Shown piece by piece: positions 4,255-64,000 of a DNA stretch of 64,000 nt (position 1 is its first letter; every line of letters starts with the position of its first letter). This DNA comes from Prochlorococcus sp. scB243_498I20. GTDB lineage: Bacteria; Cyanobacteriota; Cyanobacteriia; PCC-6307; Cyanobiaceae. The notes under the pieces are model-generated. The model was not told the DNA's origin, ran no database searches, and worked only from the letters and a program-made list of their open reading frames with translations. Location: the NCBI GenBank assembly GCA_000635015.1, contig JFMR01000114.1, forward strand, positions 10,164 through 74,163. Direction: 5' to 3'. Both the position numbers and the translations under genes were made by a program.

Positions 4255-5787
4255 GTGAAGAAAGTAATTTTAAGGAAAACTGAAGAAATAGAAAACTGGA
4301 GGAGAAATATAAAAAATGATATTAACTTCATTCCAACAATGGGTAATCTTCATAGTGGACATATAAAACTAATATCAACAGCAAAAAATGACAATTCTAA
4401 TGTTAATTTAGTAAGTATTTTTATTAATCCACTTCAATTTGATAACAATTTAGATTTAGAAAATTACCCTAAAACAATTGATAATGATATAAAAATCTCT
4501 TTTTCAAATGGCGCAGATGCCATCTTCATACCATGTAACGAAGATATATATCCACCGAATAATAAAAAAATTAAATTCCTAAAAGCTCCAATAGAGTTAT
4601 CTTCTGCATTATGTGGATTAAATCGAATTGGACATTTTGATGGCGTTTGTACAGTGGTTTATAGATTACTTAATCTCATCAAGCCAAAGAATCTTTACTT
4701 AGGAGAAAAAGATTGGCAACAACTTTTAATTTTAAAGAATCTTGTCCAAATAAAGAAATTAAATGTTGCTATTAAATCTATTCCTACACAAAGAGATTTT
4801 GATGGAGTTCCTTTAAGTTCACGTAATGTACATCTATCAAAAAACGAAAGAAAATTGATTAGGTTTTTTTCAAATGAGTTATTAGAAGCAAAAAGAAATT
4901 TTCAACAAGAAAAAAAAATCAATTTAAACGAAATAATTAAAAAGATATCAGCAAAAAAAATTTCAATTGAATATTTAGAACATTTACACCCTCATACACT
5001 CCAACAAGCAAGACTTGAGGATAATATTTCGTTACTGGCTGGTGCGATAAGATGTGGAAAGACAAGATTAATTGATCACGTTTTTCTTATGAAAAGAAGT
5101 CCGATTATTGCAATTGATGGTCCTGCAGGTTCAGGTAAAAGTACTGTAACAAAGTTAATAGCGGAGAAACTTAAACTTTTATACTTAGATACCGGAGCAA
5201 TGTATAGGGCATTGAGTTGGCTTCTTATAAAAGAAAGTATTGATTATAAAAAAGAAAAGAAATTACAGAATATTCTCAAAGATATATCTATTGTTTTTAA
5301 ATCGAATACAAATTCACATCAGGATGTTTACGTTAATAACTACTGTGTTACTGAAGAAATTAGGTCTCAAAAGATAAGTTCTATCGTTTCTAAAATTTCC
5401 TCAATAAAAGAAGTAAGAAATTTCTTAGTAAAAGAACAAAGAAAAATTGGAGAATCAGGCGGACTTGTAGCTGAGGGAAGAGATATAGGAACTACTGTTT
5501 TTCCTAATGCAGAACTTAAAATATTTTTAACTGCTAGCATCGATGAAAGAGCAAAAAGAAGAAAATCCGATAAAAATAGTAAAGACTCACAAGAAATAGA
5601 CCTTCATACCTTAAAAGAACTTATAAAGAAAAGAGATTTTGAAGATTCCAATAGGGAAATTTCACCTTTAATAAAAGCGAATGACGCAATAGAAATTATT
5701 ACGGATGGATATTCAATTAATGAGGTAGTGGATAAAATTATTGATCTTTATAATGACAAGATTCCTAAAGACACTGAGATCAAATAA
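4255..5787 (+). CDS. panC/cmk: Bifunctional pantoate-beta-alanine ligase / cytidylate kinase
   Basis: PTMGNLHSGH and LSSRN (PanC) fused to IAIDGPAGSGKST, EGRDIGT (Cmk). Confidence 0.96.
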   Translation: MKKVILRKTEEIENWRRNIKNDINFIPTMGNLHSGHIKLISTAKNDNSNVNLVSIFINPLQFDNNLDLENYPKTIDNDIKISFSNGADAIFIPCNEDIYPPNNKKIKFLKAPIELSSALCGLNRIGHFDGVCTVVYRLLNLIKPKNLYLGEKDWQQLLILKNLVQIKKLNVAIKSIPTQRDFDGVPLSSRNVHLSKNERKLIRFFSNELLEAKRNFQQEKKINLNEIIKKISAKKISIEYLEHLHPHTLQQARLEDNISLLAGAIRCGKTRLIDHVFLMKRSPIIAIDGPAGSGKSTVTKLIAEKLKLLYLDTGAMYRALSWLLIKESIDYKKEKKLQNILKDISIVFKSNTNSHQDVYVNNYCVTEEIRSQKISSIVSKISSIKEVRNFLVKEQRKIGESGGLVAEGRDIGTTVFPNAELKIFLTASIDERAKRRKSDKNSKDSQEIDLHTLKELIKKRDFEDSNREISPLIKANDAIEIITDGYSINEVVDKIIDLYNDKIPKDTEIK

Positions 5788-5789
5788 AT

Positions 5790-6263
5790 TCAAGAAATAC
5801 TTTCCAAAAAACCGTTTACAGAGTCTTCTAAAATATCAAGGACATAATCAAAGCCCTCATCACCTCCAAAATATGGGTCAGGAACTTCTGGCTCATTAAA
5901 AACTGATCTAAAATCTTGTATTTTTTTAATTGATGCTAAATCATTAGAAACTGTTCTATTTTTAAGATCTTGAATATTTCTAAAATTCGAATCGTCCATC
6001 GCAAGAATATAGTTAAATTCGTCAAAATCTTTGCTAGTTATTTGACGAGCCCTGCTTGAGATATTTATATCTCTTCTTTCTGCCGCAATTCTCATCCTAG
6101 AGTCAGCTTTTTTTCCAATATGCCAACTCCCAGTTCCAGCAGAATCTACAGTAAAGCCATCAGTTAATCCTTTCTTTTCAATTAGACTTATAAAGATAGC
6201 TTCTGCTGCAGGAGACCTGCAAATATTTCCCAAACATACAAAAAGAACAGAAATTTTTTTCAT
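5790..6263 (-). CDS. Low molecular weight protein-tyrosine phosphatase
   Basis: VCLGNICRSP P-loop and DPY motif. Confidence 0.95.
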   Translation of the reverse strand: MKKISVLFVCLGNICRSPAAEAIFISLIEKKGLTDGFTVDSAGTGSWHIGKKADSRMRIAAERRDINISSRARQITSKDFDEFNYILAMDDSNFRNIQDLKNRTVSNDLASIKKIQDFRSVFNEPEVPDPYFGGDEGFDYVLDILEDSVNGFLESIS

Positions 6264-6295
6264 ATGATTTTGAATTCCGTTAAATTATAAGACTT

Positions 6296-7057
6296 TTAAG
6301 TAGTAAATAAAACTTCTTTAATTAAAGATTCAGTAAATTCTTTACCAAACAAACTCCACAACATTGGCCTTGCTGGATCGTTATCTCTTCTATATTTCAA
6401 ATAATGATTTTGACCATTTATTAATTCTTTTTGCATTTCCATATTGGCTTCTTTGCTTTCAAAAAGAATTTCCAAATACAAATCAAGATATTCCTTAAAT
6501 GAGGTATAAAGTTGATTAGCAATTAAAAAATCACTTCTTTCTTCTTTTGGTAATTTTGACCAGATTACTCCTGGAGAAAAAAATCTAGCTACATCTGCAG
6601 ACATTTTTTCAGCTAATGGGAGTGATGAATGACAATTATTTTTGAGTTTTATAAGTTTTTTTAATAACTCATTACTGTATTGTTTTTGTATTTTTAATGA
6701 AGGCTGAAAATCTAATACTAATAAATGACTATTAGGTAGAGAAACAAAATCTACTCCAAAAAATGGGACGTTATAAAAAGTATTAGGAATAATTAAAAAA
6801 TTTAAAACAGAATAATTTGAGCTATTTATGCACACTGCTCTTGCGAAGTGAATTCTTTTTTTATGAGTTACACCCCAAGTAGAGAGACTAACCTTTTTTG
6901 TTGATTTTTTTGAACCATAAGTTGAATCTCTATAAGCATATTCTGAGGGTATTGTTTTTTCTAAACAGTTATATTTACTTAAATTATTTGTTAAATATTT
7001 TAAAAAATTATGCCATCTCCAATCTGGCCTGAAAAAAATAGAATCTTGTATTAACAT
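6296..7057 (-). CDS. pebB: Phycoerythrobilin:ferredoxin oxidoreductase
   Basis: Ferredoxin-dependent bilin reductase motifs ([17 protein letters not shown]); third gene of ho1-pebA-pebB. Confidence 0.9.
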
Positions 7058-7768
7058 TCAATGAATAATCTCATTATTTAATGTAAATAGAAATTTATCG
7101 ACAAATTTTTTTGTCCATTTTTCTCCAAAAAAAGATTTAAACAATTTATCTGCAGGGTCTTTTTCATAACTGTATTTATCATATTTAATTTGATTAATCT
7201 TTATTTCATCTTCATTTAAAAATTGATTAACAGGATTCGATTTATAAATGTTCAAATAATTATTTACAAATGAATGGAATATATTATTTAAATCTCTATC
7301 AAGATTTAATTTATTTCCTCTACATATAATCACCCATGGGGAAAAATACTTTTTTGAATCATATATATTCTTCATTTTATTATTATCAAATGCAGAATAT
7401 TTTTTCTTAATAATACCTAAACTTGAACAATATTTTTCAAGATATTTGCTTTCTTGAATTAAAGGTTGATAATCAAGAATTGCTAATAACTTTTGAGAAG
7501 TTCCAAACCATAAAATATCAGCTCCTAATATAGGCACCTCACTATCAAAATTAGGATATGCGACCGTATTTAACACTTGCAGTTTTTTGCCACCATCTAA
7601 TCTTGTTATCCGCCACTTTCTATATTCGGGAGATGCAAAAAGCCAATTTTTTATAATATATTTTGAATCTTCATTATGATGTTCTTTGAATTCACTAGAT
7701 ATTTGTACTTCATGTCCATTTAATTCATCAATATTTGTTTTAAGGAAAGCAACTAATGAATCAAACAT
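7058..7768 (-). CDS. pebA: 15,16-dihydrobiliverdin:ferredoxin oxidoreductase
   Basis: [32 protein letters not shown] motifs; between ho1 and pebB. Confidence 0.9.
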
Positions 7769-55140: not shown

Positions 55141-55184
55141 TACTAAATTGAATTGGAGATATCCTAAAGGATACAAACATGAAA

Positions 55185-55228
55185 AGCGGATGAAGAGATT
55201 CGAACTCTCGACATTCTCCTTGGCAAGG
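55185..55228 (-). repeat. 3' half of tRNA-Gly(GCC) (att junction)
   Basis: Reverse complement CCTTGCCAAGGAGAATGTCGAGAGTTCGAATCTCTTCATCCGCT; no D-arm or 5' acceptor strand upstream. Confidence 0.9.
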
Positions 55229-55546: not shown

Positions 55547-55888
55547 ATGCGTAAAAGAGCAACTAAACAAGAAATTGAATTAAGAGTTGCACATGCTGCT
55601 GAATTAGTTGCTGAAGGGCAGGCATATTCATCTATTACTTCCCATATTGCCGCAAAATATGGCATCTCAAGAAGAAGAGCCAGGCAGATCACTTCTAATG
55701 CTTATCTTTTGCTGAAAGATGATATTGAAAAAGGGGACTTAAATCGTCCTGAAATGACAGCAAAATTAGTATGTACTTTAGAAAATGCAATGTATAAAGC
55801 AATGCGAGAAAAACAATATTCTGCAGTTGCAAGTAATGCAAAAGTTCTTATGAAATTAATAGGGTTGGAAGCAAAAATAAAAAGTTAG
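55547..55888 (+). CDS. Mobile-element hypothetical protein with HTH (terminase small subunit-like, tentative)
   Basis: Predicted HTH (SHIAAKYGISRRRARQI) and C-terminal YKAM...A.VL.KLIGL helices; stop abuts tRNA-Pro fragment. Confidence 0.7.
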   Translation: MRKRATKQEIELRVAHAAELVAEGQAYSSITSHIAAKYGISRRRARQITSNAYLLLKDDIEKGDLNRPEMTAKLVCTLENAMYKAMREKQYSAVASNAKVLMKLIGLEAKIKS

Positions 55889-55889
55889 A

Positions 55890-55939
55890 GCGGGTGCTTT
55901 GGGAGCACTAGGTCGCAGGTTCGAATCCTGTCGCCCCGA
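55890..55939 (+). repeat. 3' two-thirds of tRNA-Pro(TGG) (att fragment)
   Basis: GCG-GGTGC-TTTGGGA-GCACT-AGGTC-GCAGG-TTCGAAT-CCTGT-CGCCCCGA; 5' acceptor/D-arm absent. Confidence 0.9.
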
Positions 55940-60854: not shown

Positions 60855-60876
60855 GGTGCAAGTAGCAAGCGTTTCA
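60855..60876 (-). repeat. Cassette site A copy 1
   Basis: + strand GGTGCAAGTAGCAAGCGTTTCA; TCA is the TGA stop of ORF 60874-61290. Confidence 0.85.
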
Positions 60877-61290: not shown

Positions 61291-61394
61291 TTAAATTTAT
61301 TTAAAACATATCAAGGTTAAAAGTAAGTAAAGCATGTAATATTTTTGCTTTCTTCTTCCGATCTACTGAAATATTTAATTTTTATAATTTCTAT

Positions 61395-61408
61395 ATCGAC
61401 TGTCAATC
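61395..61408 (-). repeat. Cassette site B partial copy
   Basis: ATCGACTGTCAATC identical to part of 63048-63091. Confidence 0.75.
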
Positions 61409-61418
61409 GTATTTAATA

Positions 61419-61444
61419 TAGCGGTGCAATTAGTAAGCGTTTCA
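61419..61444 (-). repeat. Cassette site A copy 2
   Basis: + strand TAGCGGTGCAATTAGTAAGCGTTTCA; TCA is the TGA stop of ORF 61442-61837. Confidence 0.85.
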
Positions 61445-61837
61445 ATTTTTATTGTTAACTAATCCATAGATACATAAAAGAGGATTCACTATCAAAACAA
61501 TCCAGAAAGGAGGAGGGGGTCCTCCATCAACAATTGTCCCAGCGTTAAAAGTATTAAATAGAGCTACTGCCAAAAAACAAAACATCAAAGCTAATTCACC
61601 TGATAAAACTTTTCTTAAGGAGGCTTTATCTTTAATGGAACTACAAATAATCAATAAAAAACCTATTCCTAAATTACTAGCAGCTACAACATCTGCAGTA
61701 CCTCTAACAAGAAGCAATGTTTCACTTGAAGCGTTGCCTGCAATAGTTTCCACTGAAAAAATTAGTAGAGAAATAATTAACAACCCCAACAGGATATGAA
61801 GCGCTCCAGTAGTTTTTAAAATATTTTTTAACTTCAT
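61442..61837 (-). CDS. Hypothetical integral membrane protein, ~4 TM (cassette ORF)
   Basis: Four hydrophobic segments; GGPPPPFW motif. Confidence 0.8.
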   Translation of the reverse strand: MKLKNILKTTGALHILLGLLIISLLIFSVETIAGNASSETLLLVRGTADVVAASNLGIGFLLIICSSIKDKASLRKVLSGELALMFCFLAVALFNTFNAGTIVDGGPPPPFWIVLIVNPLLCIYGLVNNKN

Positions 61838-61882
61838 AAAAAAAGGAGCTTATTTCCCCCTTATTGTAGATCGACTGTCAAT
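61838..61882 (-). repeat. Cassette site B full copy
   Basis: AAAAAAAGGAGCTTATTTCCCCCTTATTGTAGATCGACTGTCAAT directly abutting the ATG. Confidence 0.88.
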
Positions 61883-61886
61883 TTAG

Positions 61887-61901
61887 AGTAGTAAGCGTTT
61901 C
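61887..61901 (-). repeat. Cassette site A copy 3 (truncated)
   Basis: AGTAGTAAGCGTTTC, 4 bp from site B. Confidence 0.8.
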
Positions 61902-62111
61902 GTTTAAAACAAAGTTCTAGTTTTTTCGTTTTTTTTCATTAACCTTCCACATTTTCTTGAACATATAATTTTTATGTTCATTGCAATACATTTAGCAGAA
62001 GTAATAATGCGTAAGTGTATATTAACTATACAGAATCCGTTCCAAAATTCTGTAGGTTTAAGGTCTTCCCTATCTTTCAACTCCTATTAATAGTTGAAAA
62101 TAAAAACCTAT

Positions 62112-62294
62112 TTACCACCACATACCGAGATTCAATTTTTTTGCATCTCTATTACATGCAAGCTCACACTCGTTTAACTCTTTGACTGAGAGAGCCTCAA
62201 GTATTCTTGCCATATCAATAGAAGATAGTTCTCCATTAACGTTCCACTTAAGTGTAGTTTTACGTTGAGGTGTGTTTTTTGTTTTTTTCATCAT
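62112..62294 (-). CDS. Small hypothetical protein
   Basis: 60-aa ORF, TLKWN..GELS.IDM.RIL...C.L.C pattern looks protein-like. Confidence 0.6.
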   Translation of the reverse strand: MMKKTKNTPQRKTTLKWNVNGELSSIDMARILEALSVKELNECELACNRDAKKLNLGMWW

Positions 62295-62442
62295 GACTTT
62301 TTAAGGTCGGGATAATTAAATAGCATGATTATTTAAAATTCTCAAATATTTATTGAGTAAAAGAGTATAAATTACCAAAAAAATGTGAAGTTTTTATAAG
62401 TTAAAGAATTAAATTTATTTATCAAGAATCTAGAAATTCAAT

Positions 62443-62468
62443 TAGCCGTGCAAGTAGTAAGCGTTTCA
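62443..62468 (-). repeat. Cassette site A copy 4
   Basis: TAGCCGTGCAAGTAGTAAGCGTTTCA immediately after the TAA at 62469-62471. Confidence 0.85.
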
Positions 62469-63047
62469 TTAAGGAAGATACTTATTCCTATTTATTGGTT
62501 CATTTTGGAGGATTCTCATGGCTTCTGGTGAGTTAGTAACTCCTATTATTGCGACCAAAATAACACCTAGTGCTAACAAGGCATATGCTCTCTGTTTATT
62601 TGCTTTTACCTTTCTAATACTTTCTTCTTCATAAACTTTCTTAAAATGAGCTTCCCATTTTTCAACAAAAGTAGGTTCAACTAACTTTTCATCAATTTCT
62701 TTATTTTTTGCCTCCGCTTCGCCATTAAATTTATTTTTAAATTCTGGGAAATCATTATGGCTTAAAGCCCATTATTTCCACGATGTCCATTCTTGTAATT
62801 GTGTTTGTTTTGCTTGACCTTGAATTAAAAAAGCGTCTCCGCCAACATCAGCACCTGCCATACCCGTAATTGCTCCAGCTATGGCTCCATCACGCCTGCT
62901 TGTATTTTTAGGAGGCCTTGCTTCTACATCATGTAATTTTAAAAATTCAACAACTATTACATCTAAACCAACTAAGGGAACTTTTTTTAATTCAGGATTA
63001 TCTCTGTAAATTCTGGTTAATTCAGATTGTTTCCATTCTTTAGTCAT
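62469..63047 (-). pseudogene. Hypothetical protein with in-frame premature stop (cassette ORF)
   Basis: Frame reads ...EWTSWK-TAA(62772-62774)-WALSHNDFPEF... and stays open for 100 more codons incl. a TM helix to TAA 62469. Confidence 0.75.
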
Positions 63048-63090
63048 AAAAAAGAAGCTAATTGCCCCTTATTGTAGATCGACTGTCAAT
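63048..63090 (-). repeat. Cassette site B full copy
   Basis: AAAAAAGAAGCTAATTGCCCCTTATTGTAGATCGACTGTCAAT; 26-bp core identical to 61857-61882; 6 bp from integrase stop, abuts ATG. Confidence 0.88.
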
Positions 63091-63096
63091 CTTAAA

Positions 63097-64000
63097 TTAG
63101 ACACCTACTTCAAAGGCATTTTTTTGATGTCTAGCAACAGCAGCTTCGATAGATGCTTCACTAGTCCAACGGCCGTAAAAATTTAAATGTGTTGCGGGTG
63201 TATGACCCATTGCTTCGGCGGCATCTCGAATTGAGATTGGATTATCACTAGCTTTGTGAGCTATCCAAGCCCATCTATGACGAAGGGAATATGGCGTTAA
63301 TCCTTTAGTCTTTTTAGCTATCTGTTTCCAAATAATTGTTCTATTTAATTGTTGGGTTAATGTTGCACCAACATCAGCAAATCTTCTCTTTTTCTGAACC
63401 ATCTTAATTTGATTTTCGATCGCTTCTGGAAGTCCAACTAAACCGCTTTTATATTGTGCTACAAGCTCATTTCCTAGCCCTTCTCTGCCCAATATATCTA
63501 GTGCAAATACTCTACGAGGTGGATTCTTTTTGCCCTTATTCTGGACGTTTTTCTTGATACTTCCGACAAATAATTTATTACCATCTCTTACTTCAAGAGT
63601 GGCTAATTCTGAAAGTCTTAATCCATGCAATGCGATCAATCCGACCGCTAAATATAACTTAGGATTTGTCGCTTTTAGTGTGTCTAATAATATTGCTAAA
63701 TCAGCGTCAGATATTGGTGGAGTTACTGTATCTTCTGTAGTTCTAGTATTATCTCCGACCAGTTCTTTAGCTAAGTCTTTATGGGGTGGAAACCATCTTT
63801 CACTCATACCGTGGCGGTTGACTCCATATTCAAGAATTTTATAAACGGAATCTAAATATCTTTTTCTAGAATCTGAACCCGATGGAATATCATCAAAGAA
63901 ATTTTTAGCGTATTTTTTGACAAAATCTTCTCCCGAAGTTGGTGTAGGTTTTTTATTCATTACTTCTCTAAATCGATCAACTCTTCTAGTCCACTCCATA
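63097..64000 (-). CDS. Tyrosine recombinase/integrase (5' end outside window)
   Basis: HGLRLSEL (Arg), PYSLRH, AMGH, FY catalytic tyrosine near C-terminus. Confidence 0.92.
   Translation of the reverse strand, partial: MEWTRRVDRFREVMNKKPTPTSGEDFVKKYAKNFFDDIPSGSDSRKRYLDSVYKILEYGVNRHGMSERWFPPHKDLAKELVGDNTRTTEDTVTPPISDADLAILLDTLKATNPKLYLAVGLIALHGLRLSELATLEVRDGNKLFVGSIKKNVQNKGKKNPPRRVFALDILGREGLGNELVAQYKSGLVGLPEAIENQIKMVQKKRRFADVGATLTQQLNRTIIWKQIAKKTKGLTPYSLRHRWAWIAHKASDNPISIRDAAEAMGHTPATHLNFYGRWTSEASIEAAVARHQKNAFEVGV

Follow-up and report, generated by a model that had tools for sequence, protein, structure and literature searches.

The stretch of DNA analysed here, called the window below, comprises 64,000 nucleotides of Prochlorococcus sp. 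scB243_498I20 (contig JFMR01000114.1, or C114, positions 10,164 to 74,163), and its subject is Site B, a short intergenic element that lies in two copies on the minus strand behind the gene for a tyrosine recombinase. In the window, the 26-mer ATTGACAGTCGATCTACAATAAGGGG has two exact occurrences, 63065-63090(-) and 61857-61882(-); no match to it appeared in 100 dinucleotide-preserving shuffles. Copy 1 begins 6 nt past the integrase stop, in the order TAA-TTTAAG-ATTGACAG, and its minus-strand context from 63099 down to 63045 reads TAA-TTTAAG-ATTGACAGTCGATCTACAATAAGGGGCAATTAGCTTCTTTTTT-ATG. Copy 2 follows 1208 bp further on, where the minus strand from 61882 down to 61835 reads ...CTCTAA-ATTGACAGTCGATCTACAATAAGGGGGAAATAAGCTCCTTTTTTT-ATG. 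The two copies are alike over 43 nt (86% identity), and the likeness reaches the ATG of each open reading frame (ORF) behind. A sequence-only reading of this DNA had pointed to the identical 26-bp core, to the position of the first copy 6 bp after the integrase stop, and to a TTGACA and a TACAAT too close together for a normal -35/-10 pair. All three observations held; the two boxes are 7 bp apart in both window copies, and the transcription start sites (TSSs) mapped in strain MED4, described below, agree with that reading of them.

Each copy is built in the same order. In copy 1 the near-palindrome GATTGAC-A-GTCGATC, an operator-like 15-mer (63077..63091, minus strand, as are all features of the three copies), lies directly 5' of the -10 hexamer TACAAT (63071..63076), which is followed by the hairpin AAGGGGC-AATTA-GCTTCTT and a T-run (63052..63070); by homology to MED4, the TSS is predicted within the loop at about 63062-63064. 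The corresponding parts of copy 2 are the 15-mer AATTGAC-A-GTCGATC (61869..61883), TACAAT (61863..61868), the hairpin AAGGGGG-AAATAA-GCTCCTTT with its T-run (61842..61862), and a TSS predicted, again by homology to MED4, at about 61854-61856. The ORF behind copy 1 encodes 91 amino acids and has no Pfam family (62772..63047), whereas that behind copy 2 encodes a membrane-like product of 131 amino acids (61442..61837) and forms with copy 2 a discrete cassette, 61442-61882. A third, decayed copy, TTGACAGTCGATATAGAAA (61388..61406), has neither the hexamer pattern TAnnnT nor the hairpin. An Rfam search of positions 40000-64000 (E<=1) returned nothing at Site B, its sole match being a weak tRNA-like one at 55868-55932.

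A genome-wide copy search, one of the checks that the sequence-only reading had proposed, placed the two window copies in a genus-wide family rather than a local pair. The 19-mer consensus TTGACAGTCGATCTAAAAT had 22 matches with up to 3 mismatches in the 1.59-Mb source assembly (reversed control, 0), clustered in few regions of contigs C45, C49, C108, C40 and C114. With up to 2 mismatches allowed, every one of the 61 genomes sampled from the genus contained the 19-mer, at approximately 1-22 copies each (15 in MED4), and all controls gave 0. As a whole, the unit recurs 5 to 25 times in each high-light Prochlorococcus genome sampled. A family-wide sample contained it in 8/8 genomes of the genus, with single matches in just 2 of 41 other genera. 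When the exact 19-mer was compared with 185,579 species genomes, all matches listed were Prochlorococcus or Synechococcaceae single-cell or isolate records. The taxonomy of these exact matches identifies the genus of the module as high-light-adapted Prochlorococcus, MED4 included.

The anatomy of the module was counted in 212 unique instances. The family consensus is [G]A-TTGACAGTCGATC-TAnnnT, after which come a short hairpin with a purine and a pyrimidine arm, a T-run and finally the ATG, the unit measuring about 47 bp. The TTGACAGTCGATC motif was almost invariant; an A preceded it in 94% of the instances, and a G preceded that A in 55%. Positions 1, 2 and 6 of the hexamer are fixed and positions 3-5 variable, with TAAAAT, TACAAT, TAACAT, TAAACT, TAGAAT and TATAAT all found; the consensus is TAAAAT, and the TACAAT of the window is a minority variant. 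TAnnnT stood directly behind the 13-mer in 18 of 22 copies. After the hexamer come 0-3 nt, the hairpin (purine 5' arm, pyrimidine 3' arm) and 5-9 T, and the start codon lies 21-27 nt past the motif in approximately 64% of the instances. Together with the preceding [G]A, the 13-mer forms the near-perfect palindrome GATTGAC-A-GTCGATC around a single central base, which the commonest variant, G10 to A, completes. The halves of the 15-mer are conserved jointly in the genome, as 18 of 21 sites anchored on the right half also had the left half, and 15 of 17 anchored on the left half had the right; what is conserved is the sequence rather than mere pairing. The dyad symmetry claimed earlier for Site B is therefore real, but the form proposed for it, ATTG-N4-TCGA-N4-CAAT, needs the minority TACAAT variant, and the stronger dyad is GATTGAC-A-GTCGATC. 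This symmetry and the invariance of its sequence are indirect evidence that the 15-mer is a putative transcription-factor operator, and we tentatively predict, at a little less than even confidence, that it is a protein operator. It does not match the CGRE1/PMM1637 site, a different motif located at -55 (PMC6191309).

Evidence for promoter function came from MED4, for which start sites are available in the TSSAR tables of differential RNA sequencing (dRNA-seq) from nitrogen-replete and nitrogen-starved cells (Read et al. 2017, PMC5607370, Tables S8-S11). The coordinate frame was fixed with the 159-nt sequence of Steglich et al. 2008 (PMC2518516, Table S2), which matches 100% at its published coordinates. 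At four modules, a listed TSS fell 7-9 nt after TAnnnT: 358183(-), 16 nt upstream of PMM0377, is the ninth nucleotide past the final T of the hexamer; 359991(-), at 20 nt from PMM0379 on its upstream side, is the seventh; 359627(-), an orphan start before the small ORF PMED4_04151, and 1347115(+), 16 nt upstream of PMM1401, are again the ninth. The hexamers at these modules are TAAAAT or TAAAGT, and every start falls within the loop of the hairpin, 3' of its purine arm. Given these positions, TAnnnT is a working -10 box, with a primary 5' end about 7 nt downstream as in sigma-70-type promoters, and the identity of the module sequence carries this assignment to the window. No -35 hexamer is present 16-18 bp upstream of the -10 box, TTGACA being 7 bp from it. 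The possibility that TTGACA itself serves as a -35 box with a 17-20 bp spacer (a MerR-like geometry) was ruled out by the TSS positions; the partner of TTGACA-N17 would be GGCAAT or GGGATA, and the predicted start would lie about 8 nt 3' of that observed. The tables of Steglich et al. (PMC2518516) contain no 5'- or 3'-RACE (rapid amplification of cDNA ends) ends at modules. We conclude with high confidence that the module is a promoter. For the window copies, homology to MED4 predicts U-rich leaders of 15-19 nt that lack a Shine-Dalgarno sequence. The earlier suggestion of a portable promoter expressing whichever ORF is placed behind it is thus well supported, both by the MED4 starts at orthologous modules and by the at least 54 non-homologous ORF families found downstream.

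Among the 11 MED4 copies without a listed TSS, some have a damaged hexamer (TAAAAA, TAAATT), and three have a perfect 19-mer, so that activity is not uniform. A MED4 copy ending in TAAAAA, comparable to copy 3 of the window, showed no TSS at the expected position. The modules without a TSS include 1354308, 1361463 and 1362118 and 8 more, several of them in the island with phosphorus-starvation genes, which suggests condition-dependent control.

Transcription that starts in the loop yields an mRNA without the 5' arm of the hairpin. Folding was evaluated for RNAs reading through from upstream and for RNAs beginning at the predicted TSS; the former gave free energies (dG) of -10.2 kcal/mol for copy 1 and -7.1 kcal/mol for copy 2, and the latter 0.0 for both. 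Across the family, the median dG of read-through RNAs was -5.75 kcal/mol, compared with -1.7 for shuffles, and a dG <= -6 was reached by 48% of the instances versus 3% of the shuffles (RNA from the mapped TSS position: 0). Stem positions were paired in 93% of cases, as opposed to 64% (maximum 67.5%) when the 3' arms were dealt among the sequences, and the 121 distinct stems include the compensatory types GGGGC/GCCCC, GGGGC/GCUCC, GGAGC/GCUCC, AGAGC/GCUCU and GAGGG/CCCUC. The structure belongs to the sense strand, because G:T pairs far outnumber A:C pairs. This structure-anchored count was used in place of RNAalifold, which found no consensus structure in an 87-sequence MAFFT alignment, because the two types of hairpin are shifted against each other there by one column. 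Judged by its pairing, the hairpin is kept by selection. In the terminator scan (a G+C-rich stem of 5 bp or more with a short loop and a U-tract directly behind), both window hairpins with their T-runs passed, and the module hairpins resemble the free-standing terminators of the source genome. Whether the hairpin would terminate or attenuate transcription from the upstream gene is, in our estimate, evenly balanced.

The gene in front of copy 1 encodes a 428-amino acid tyrosine recombinase, whose 3' two thirds (300 amino acids) are visible in the window at 63097..64000 on the minus strand; the gene continues beyond, and with the tRNA it occupies 73260-74747 of contig C114. An intact tRNA-Gly(GCC) is located approximately 130 bp upstream of the integrase start, outside the window, and a 45-bp fragment of the 3' end of tRNA-Gly at 55184..55228 is an exact direct repeat of contig positions 74675-74719, forming the far attachment (att) repeat. 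The integrative element delimited in this way is about 9.4 kb long (window 55184 to approximately 64556) and holds both module copies; by virtue of the 45-bp repeat, it belongs with the tRNA-targeting elements of the tycheposon kind, and its att repeats are of the ordinary sort. The integrase scored 36 bits against the NCBIfam XerA/integron-integrase model (cut-off 220) and 22.8 bits against Pfam Phage_integrase (threshold 27.1), and is a divergent tyrosine recombinase outside the integron-integrase family. Of 120 module-bearing loci of 8 kb, only about 7 held a homologue, and the source genome has 2 full-length integrase copies as against approximately 25 modules. Unlike an att core, which is the same at both ends of an element, the Site B copies are internal to it and occur genome-wide. 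The sequence-only reading had also offered Site B as a recombinase core site, a proposal that these results do not support, since the ends of the element are formed by the tRNA-Gly repeat, integrase homologues accompany so few of the modules, and the enzyme is no IntI.

The downstream ORFs are diverse. They fell into 54 BLAST clusters (37 of them singletons in the sample) with a median length of 94 amino acids, and include the families DUF3764, DUF3804 and DUF3303, most being without a family. The cassette composed of copy 2 and the 131-amino acid ORF was found in at least 12 other genomes, behind at least 5 different upstream sequences; its homology starts exactly at 61882/61883 and breaks off no more than about 12 nt from the stop codon. 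At a relative locus with a 99% identical integrase (L096), the upstream flank of copy 1 leads into the 26-bp core and from there into the downstream sequence of copy 2, which means that exactly the 1208 bp between the copies are absent and that the crossover lay inside the identical core. The same locus contains an additional 1.9 kb with repeats of the stretch 61395-61447 at its borders. At another locus (L095), a third, different first cassette stands behind the same integrase. The ORF family beginning MTAQNFMNVV was paired with three different hairpin types, so exchange also takes place 3' of the hairpin. The module is associated with breakpoints, and these data fit homologous and site-specific exchange alike; we think it probable that the exchange of cassettes at modules is mainly homologous. 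The idea that Site B might be nothing more than a promoter of paralogous genes, unconnected with breakpoints, is not borne out, as the downstream genes are non-paralogous and the breakpoints coincide with modules.

Considering these results together, Site B is likely an intergenic module for gene expression, about 47 bp long and common to the island gene cassettes of high-light-adapted Prochlorococcus. The 15-mer would bind a dimeric protein or otherwise stand in for the missing -35 box. Host RNA polymerase uses TAnnnT as the -10 box, as the orthologous modules of MED4 show, and transcription begins in the hairpin loop and gives a U-rich leader of 15-20 nt in which a Shine-Dalgarno sequence is missing. 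RNA from the upstream gene would carry the whole hairpin and the U-tract and be terminated or attenuated, with transcripts of the nested promoter escaping. With promoter and hairpin nested in this manner, each cassette (module plus small ORF) would be self-expressed and partly insulated. Recombination could add, delete or swap cassettes because the modules share 20-45 bp of near-identical sequence; the junctions themselves were observed, and the mechanism behind them may be homologous rather than site-specific. The integrase would use the tRNA-Gly att sites to move the 9.4-kb element as a whole, with no need of Site B, and if the module works as proposed, its place behind the integrase would make sense as the stop of the integrase transcript and the start of the first cargo gene.

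Several observations count against an expression module of this kind. A TSS was listed at only 4 of the 15 MED4 copies and at 3 of the 6 perfect ones, and the TSS evidence comes from MED4, which belongs to the HLI clade, and not from the source genome. Two modules are bridged in the operon table that Read et al. obtained with Rockhopper, where PMM0376-0378 and PMM0379-0380 are joined; read-through must therefore be at least appreciable, and attenuator is perhaps the better word. Only 43% of the modules had, within 45 nt upstream, the end of a co-directional ORF that was 50 or more codons long. The centre of the 15-mer, at about -20 to -22, suits a repressor more than an activator, although ordinary culture conditions suffice for these promoters to be active. 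To our knowledge, no protein that binds the 15-mer has been described.

Several other explanations would account for part of the data. Site B could be a crossover site at which the adjacent tyrosine recombinase inserts and excises cassettes, which would explain why copy 1 lies 6 nt past the integrase stop, why the same integrase is followed in three genomes by three different first cassettes with the junction within the module, and why a dyad is present. The element already has classical 45-bp tRNA-Gly att repeats at both ends, however, and modules were found in all 61 sampled genomes, mostly far from integrases; moreover, the dyad has one central base instead of an asymmetric overlap region of 6-8 bp, and the 3' part of the module acts as a -10 box with mapped TSSs. 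We therefore give this explanation very little credence. An integron-like system, in which a dedicated recombinase or DNA-binding protein acting at the 15-mer moves the module and ORF together, perhaps as circles, with the promoter as a passenger, would suit the loci (at least 12) where homology runs from the exact 5' edge of the 15-mer to the stop codon. It would also suit the -10 and hairpin variants, which travel with the downstream ORF and so place the crossovers in or 5' of the 15-mer, the invariance of the 15-mer beyond what the hairpin needs, and the precedent of the T4-type PeSL cassettes, which form mini-circles (PMC2839356). Nevertheless, the modules are not accompanied by any candidate recombinase, the integrase score of 36 bits is far from the integron-integrase cut-off of 220, the ORF family with three hairpin types calls for exchanges 3' of the hairpin too, and 26-45 bp of identity suffices for occasional RecA-type exchange in huge populations; we regard a system of this sort as improbable. 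A related possibility, also unlikely in our judgement, is that the module is the working part of a PeSL- or integron-like cassette system of the cell, in which a conserved host protein at the 15-mer both controls the promoters and synapses modules, the module and ORF being excised, perhaps as small circles, and re-inserted at other modules.

The remaining alternatives concern the hairpin and the repeat as such. The module could be a plain regulon promoter whose hairpin, lying with its U-run between the -10 box and the ATG and kept by compensatory changes, functions in the leader of its own mRNA as a 5' stabiliser, a riboregulator or an early attenuator. All four MED4 starts are in the loop, 3' of the 5' arm, and RNAs starting there have a dG of 0.0, which makes such a role quite improbable. 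The multi-copy, island-clustered occurrence and palindromic content would be expected of a selfish miniature repeat resembling MITEs (miniature inverted-repeat transposable elements) or REPs (repetitive extragenic palindromes), in which the promoter-like sequence is incidental. That too is hardly probable: the copies have a fixed orientation and stand at a fixed 21-27 nt before start codons, where MITEs and REPs are independent of orientation, terminal inverted repeats spanning the unit and target-site duplications at the aligned junctions were both lacking, syntenic copies are kept between HLI and HLII, and promoter activity has been measured in MED4.

The closest described analogue of the module is the PeSL of T4-type phages, a comparison of organisation that claims no sequence homology. 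PeSLs are conserved promoter/stem-loop cassettes between a stop codon and an ATG (Arbiol et al. 2010, PMC2839356; Comeau et al. 2014, PMC4122927); they are abundant in hyperplastic regions, adjoin ORFans, occur at indel borders and form mini-circles (PMC2839356, PMC4122927). Like them, the module is present in many near-identical copies in plastic regions, before small ORFans and at the boundaries of indels or replacements, and combines a promoter and a stem-loop between stop and ATG. The PeSL stem-loop is likewise taken as a terminator or attenuator of upstream transcription, one PeSL subclass has the stem-loop between the -10 box and the start site, and stem types such as A3-4G3-loop-C3T3-4 resemble those of the module. 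The two differ in that PeSLs belong to phage genomes and have a near-consensus -35/N17/-10 promoter and a Shine-Dalgarno sequence, whereas the module belongs to a cellular chromosome, where it lies in islands and in a tycheposon-like element; in place of a -35 box at 17 bp it has an invariant 15-bp near-palindrome abutting the -10 box, and its leader is U-rich and lacks a Shine-Dalgarno sequence. The element that carries the window copies resembles the tycheposons of Hackl et al. (bioRxiv 10.1101/2020.12.28.424599) in its tRNA-Gly, integrase, cargo, partial tRNA repeat, location in a genomic island and phosphonate-related cargo. The module, in contrast, is not specific to tycheposons, being spread over all islands and a few core sites, and the text of that preprint makes no mention of a promoter or module motif. 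The arrangement recalls an integron as well, in that small, unrelated cassettes of one ORF each form an array behind a tyrosine recombinase gene, are parted by a repeat and vary in content among close relatives. However, the module cassettes each have their own promoter, mapped in MED4, in place of a common Pc, the repeat has neither the attC architecture nor the GTTRRRY core, the recombinase is no IntI and has tRNA-Gly as its att, and module arrays also occur with no recombinase nearby. Identical upstream regions before non-homologous genes were reportedly termed 'putative mobile promoters' by Matus-Garcia, Nijveen and van Passel in 2012. The module is like these in that one promoter sequence is propagated before unrelated genes within a genome; it differs in adding a nested terminator-like hairpin, an operator-like palindrome and a translation leader, in its genus-wide occurrence, and in marking cassette junctions.

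The literature that we searched, also by exact sequence, and which did not include the MED4 primary-transcriptome paper of Voigt et al. 2014, contained no description of the module. The module is not contained in the MED4 non-coding RNA paper and its supplements, and the mdRNA-seq paper on the Red Sea does not treat Prochlorococcus promoters. If the reading of Site B as an expression module is correct, a 47-bp unit that is at once promoter, probable terminator, leader and recombination target would explain how newly acquired small ORFs are expressed and insulated, and a shared module as the target of recombination would account for the position of indels at the boundaries of ORFs. It is in small gene cassettes of their islands that Prochlorococcus populations differ, and the genome has very few regulators and few mobile elements. 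The module would define a genus-specific regulon of dozens of small proteins (DUF3764, DUF3804, DUF3303 and orphans), and its 15-mer would be a concrete bait for the regulator. Should a synapsing protein act at the modules after all, it would be the missing mechanism of cassette-level variation in Prochlorococcus islands.

Viral sequences were also examined. The motif 15-mer gave 34 matches in viral contigs, and all but 3 of the contigs were cases of coincidence within coding sequences of unrelated phages. The full module was found in no cultured cyanophage; the sole matches in cultured phages were terminator-like hairpins of KVP40-like vibriophages (E 0.02-0.07), and the one inspected sits between convergent genes. 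A phage promoter (a T7-like 19-mer followed by GGG) was ruled out by the TSSs in uninfected MED4 and by the coincidental nature of the viral 15-mer matches. Complete modules were observed in the viral-fraction IMG/VR contigs L026, L043 and L046 (31-33% G+C), two of them in L043; these contigs may represent packaged island or tycheposon DNA, or a phage that took up host cassettes.

Some further observations concern the surroundings of modules. The 91-amino acid ORF behind copy 1 reads on in frame after its TAA (62772-62774) for 100 more codons (62468-63047, minus strand), and is probably a 192-amino acid gene with a nonsense mutation, the final stop of which abuts a stub termed Site A. The latter, (T)GAAACGCTTACTACTTGCAC on the minus strand, is present at 62448-62467, 61424-61443, 60856-60875 and approximately 61892-61911, and begins at or overlaps the stop codon of the ORF before. 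Its usual reading is ATG-AAA-CGC-TTA-CTA-CTT-GCA-CCG-CTA (MKRLLLAPL) with a stop 1-4 codons later, and from its sequence it resembles either a truncated remnant (stub) of a signal-peptide gene or a mini-ORF. The genome holds 8 copies, Site A occurs no more than 60 nt upstream of 22 of the 212 modules, and it is present in MED4 too. The L096 locus has, at 5850-7199, a second integrase paralogue (34% identical) adjoining the first, which suggests tandem integrative elements. Syntenic copies of the module kept in both clades, at 69983-70001(-) of source contig C49 and 123166-123184(+) of MED4, have no ORF directly behind, their ATG meeting a stop after 7 codons, and this copy may drive a small RNA. 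Finally, two modules face each other across one shared hairpin, TTGACACTCGATCTAAAAT-AAGGGGCATTTGCTCCTT-ATTGTAGATCGACTGTCAA, at approximately 5538-5600 of a locus of Prochlorococcus MIT 9107 (L118). This arrangement is hard to square with promoter function alone, and is either the product of a rearrangement or a bidirectional terminator between convergent genes.

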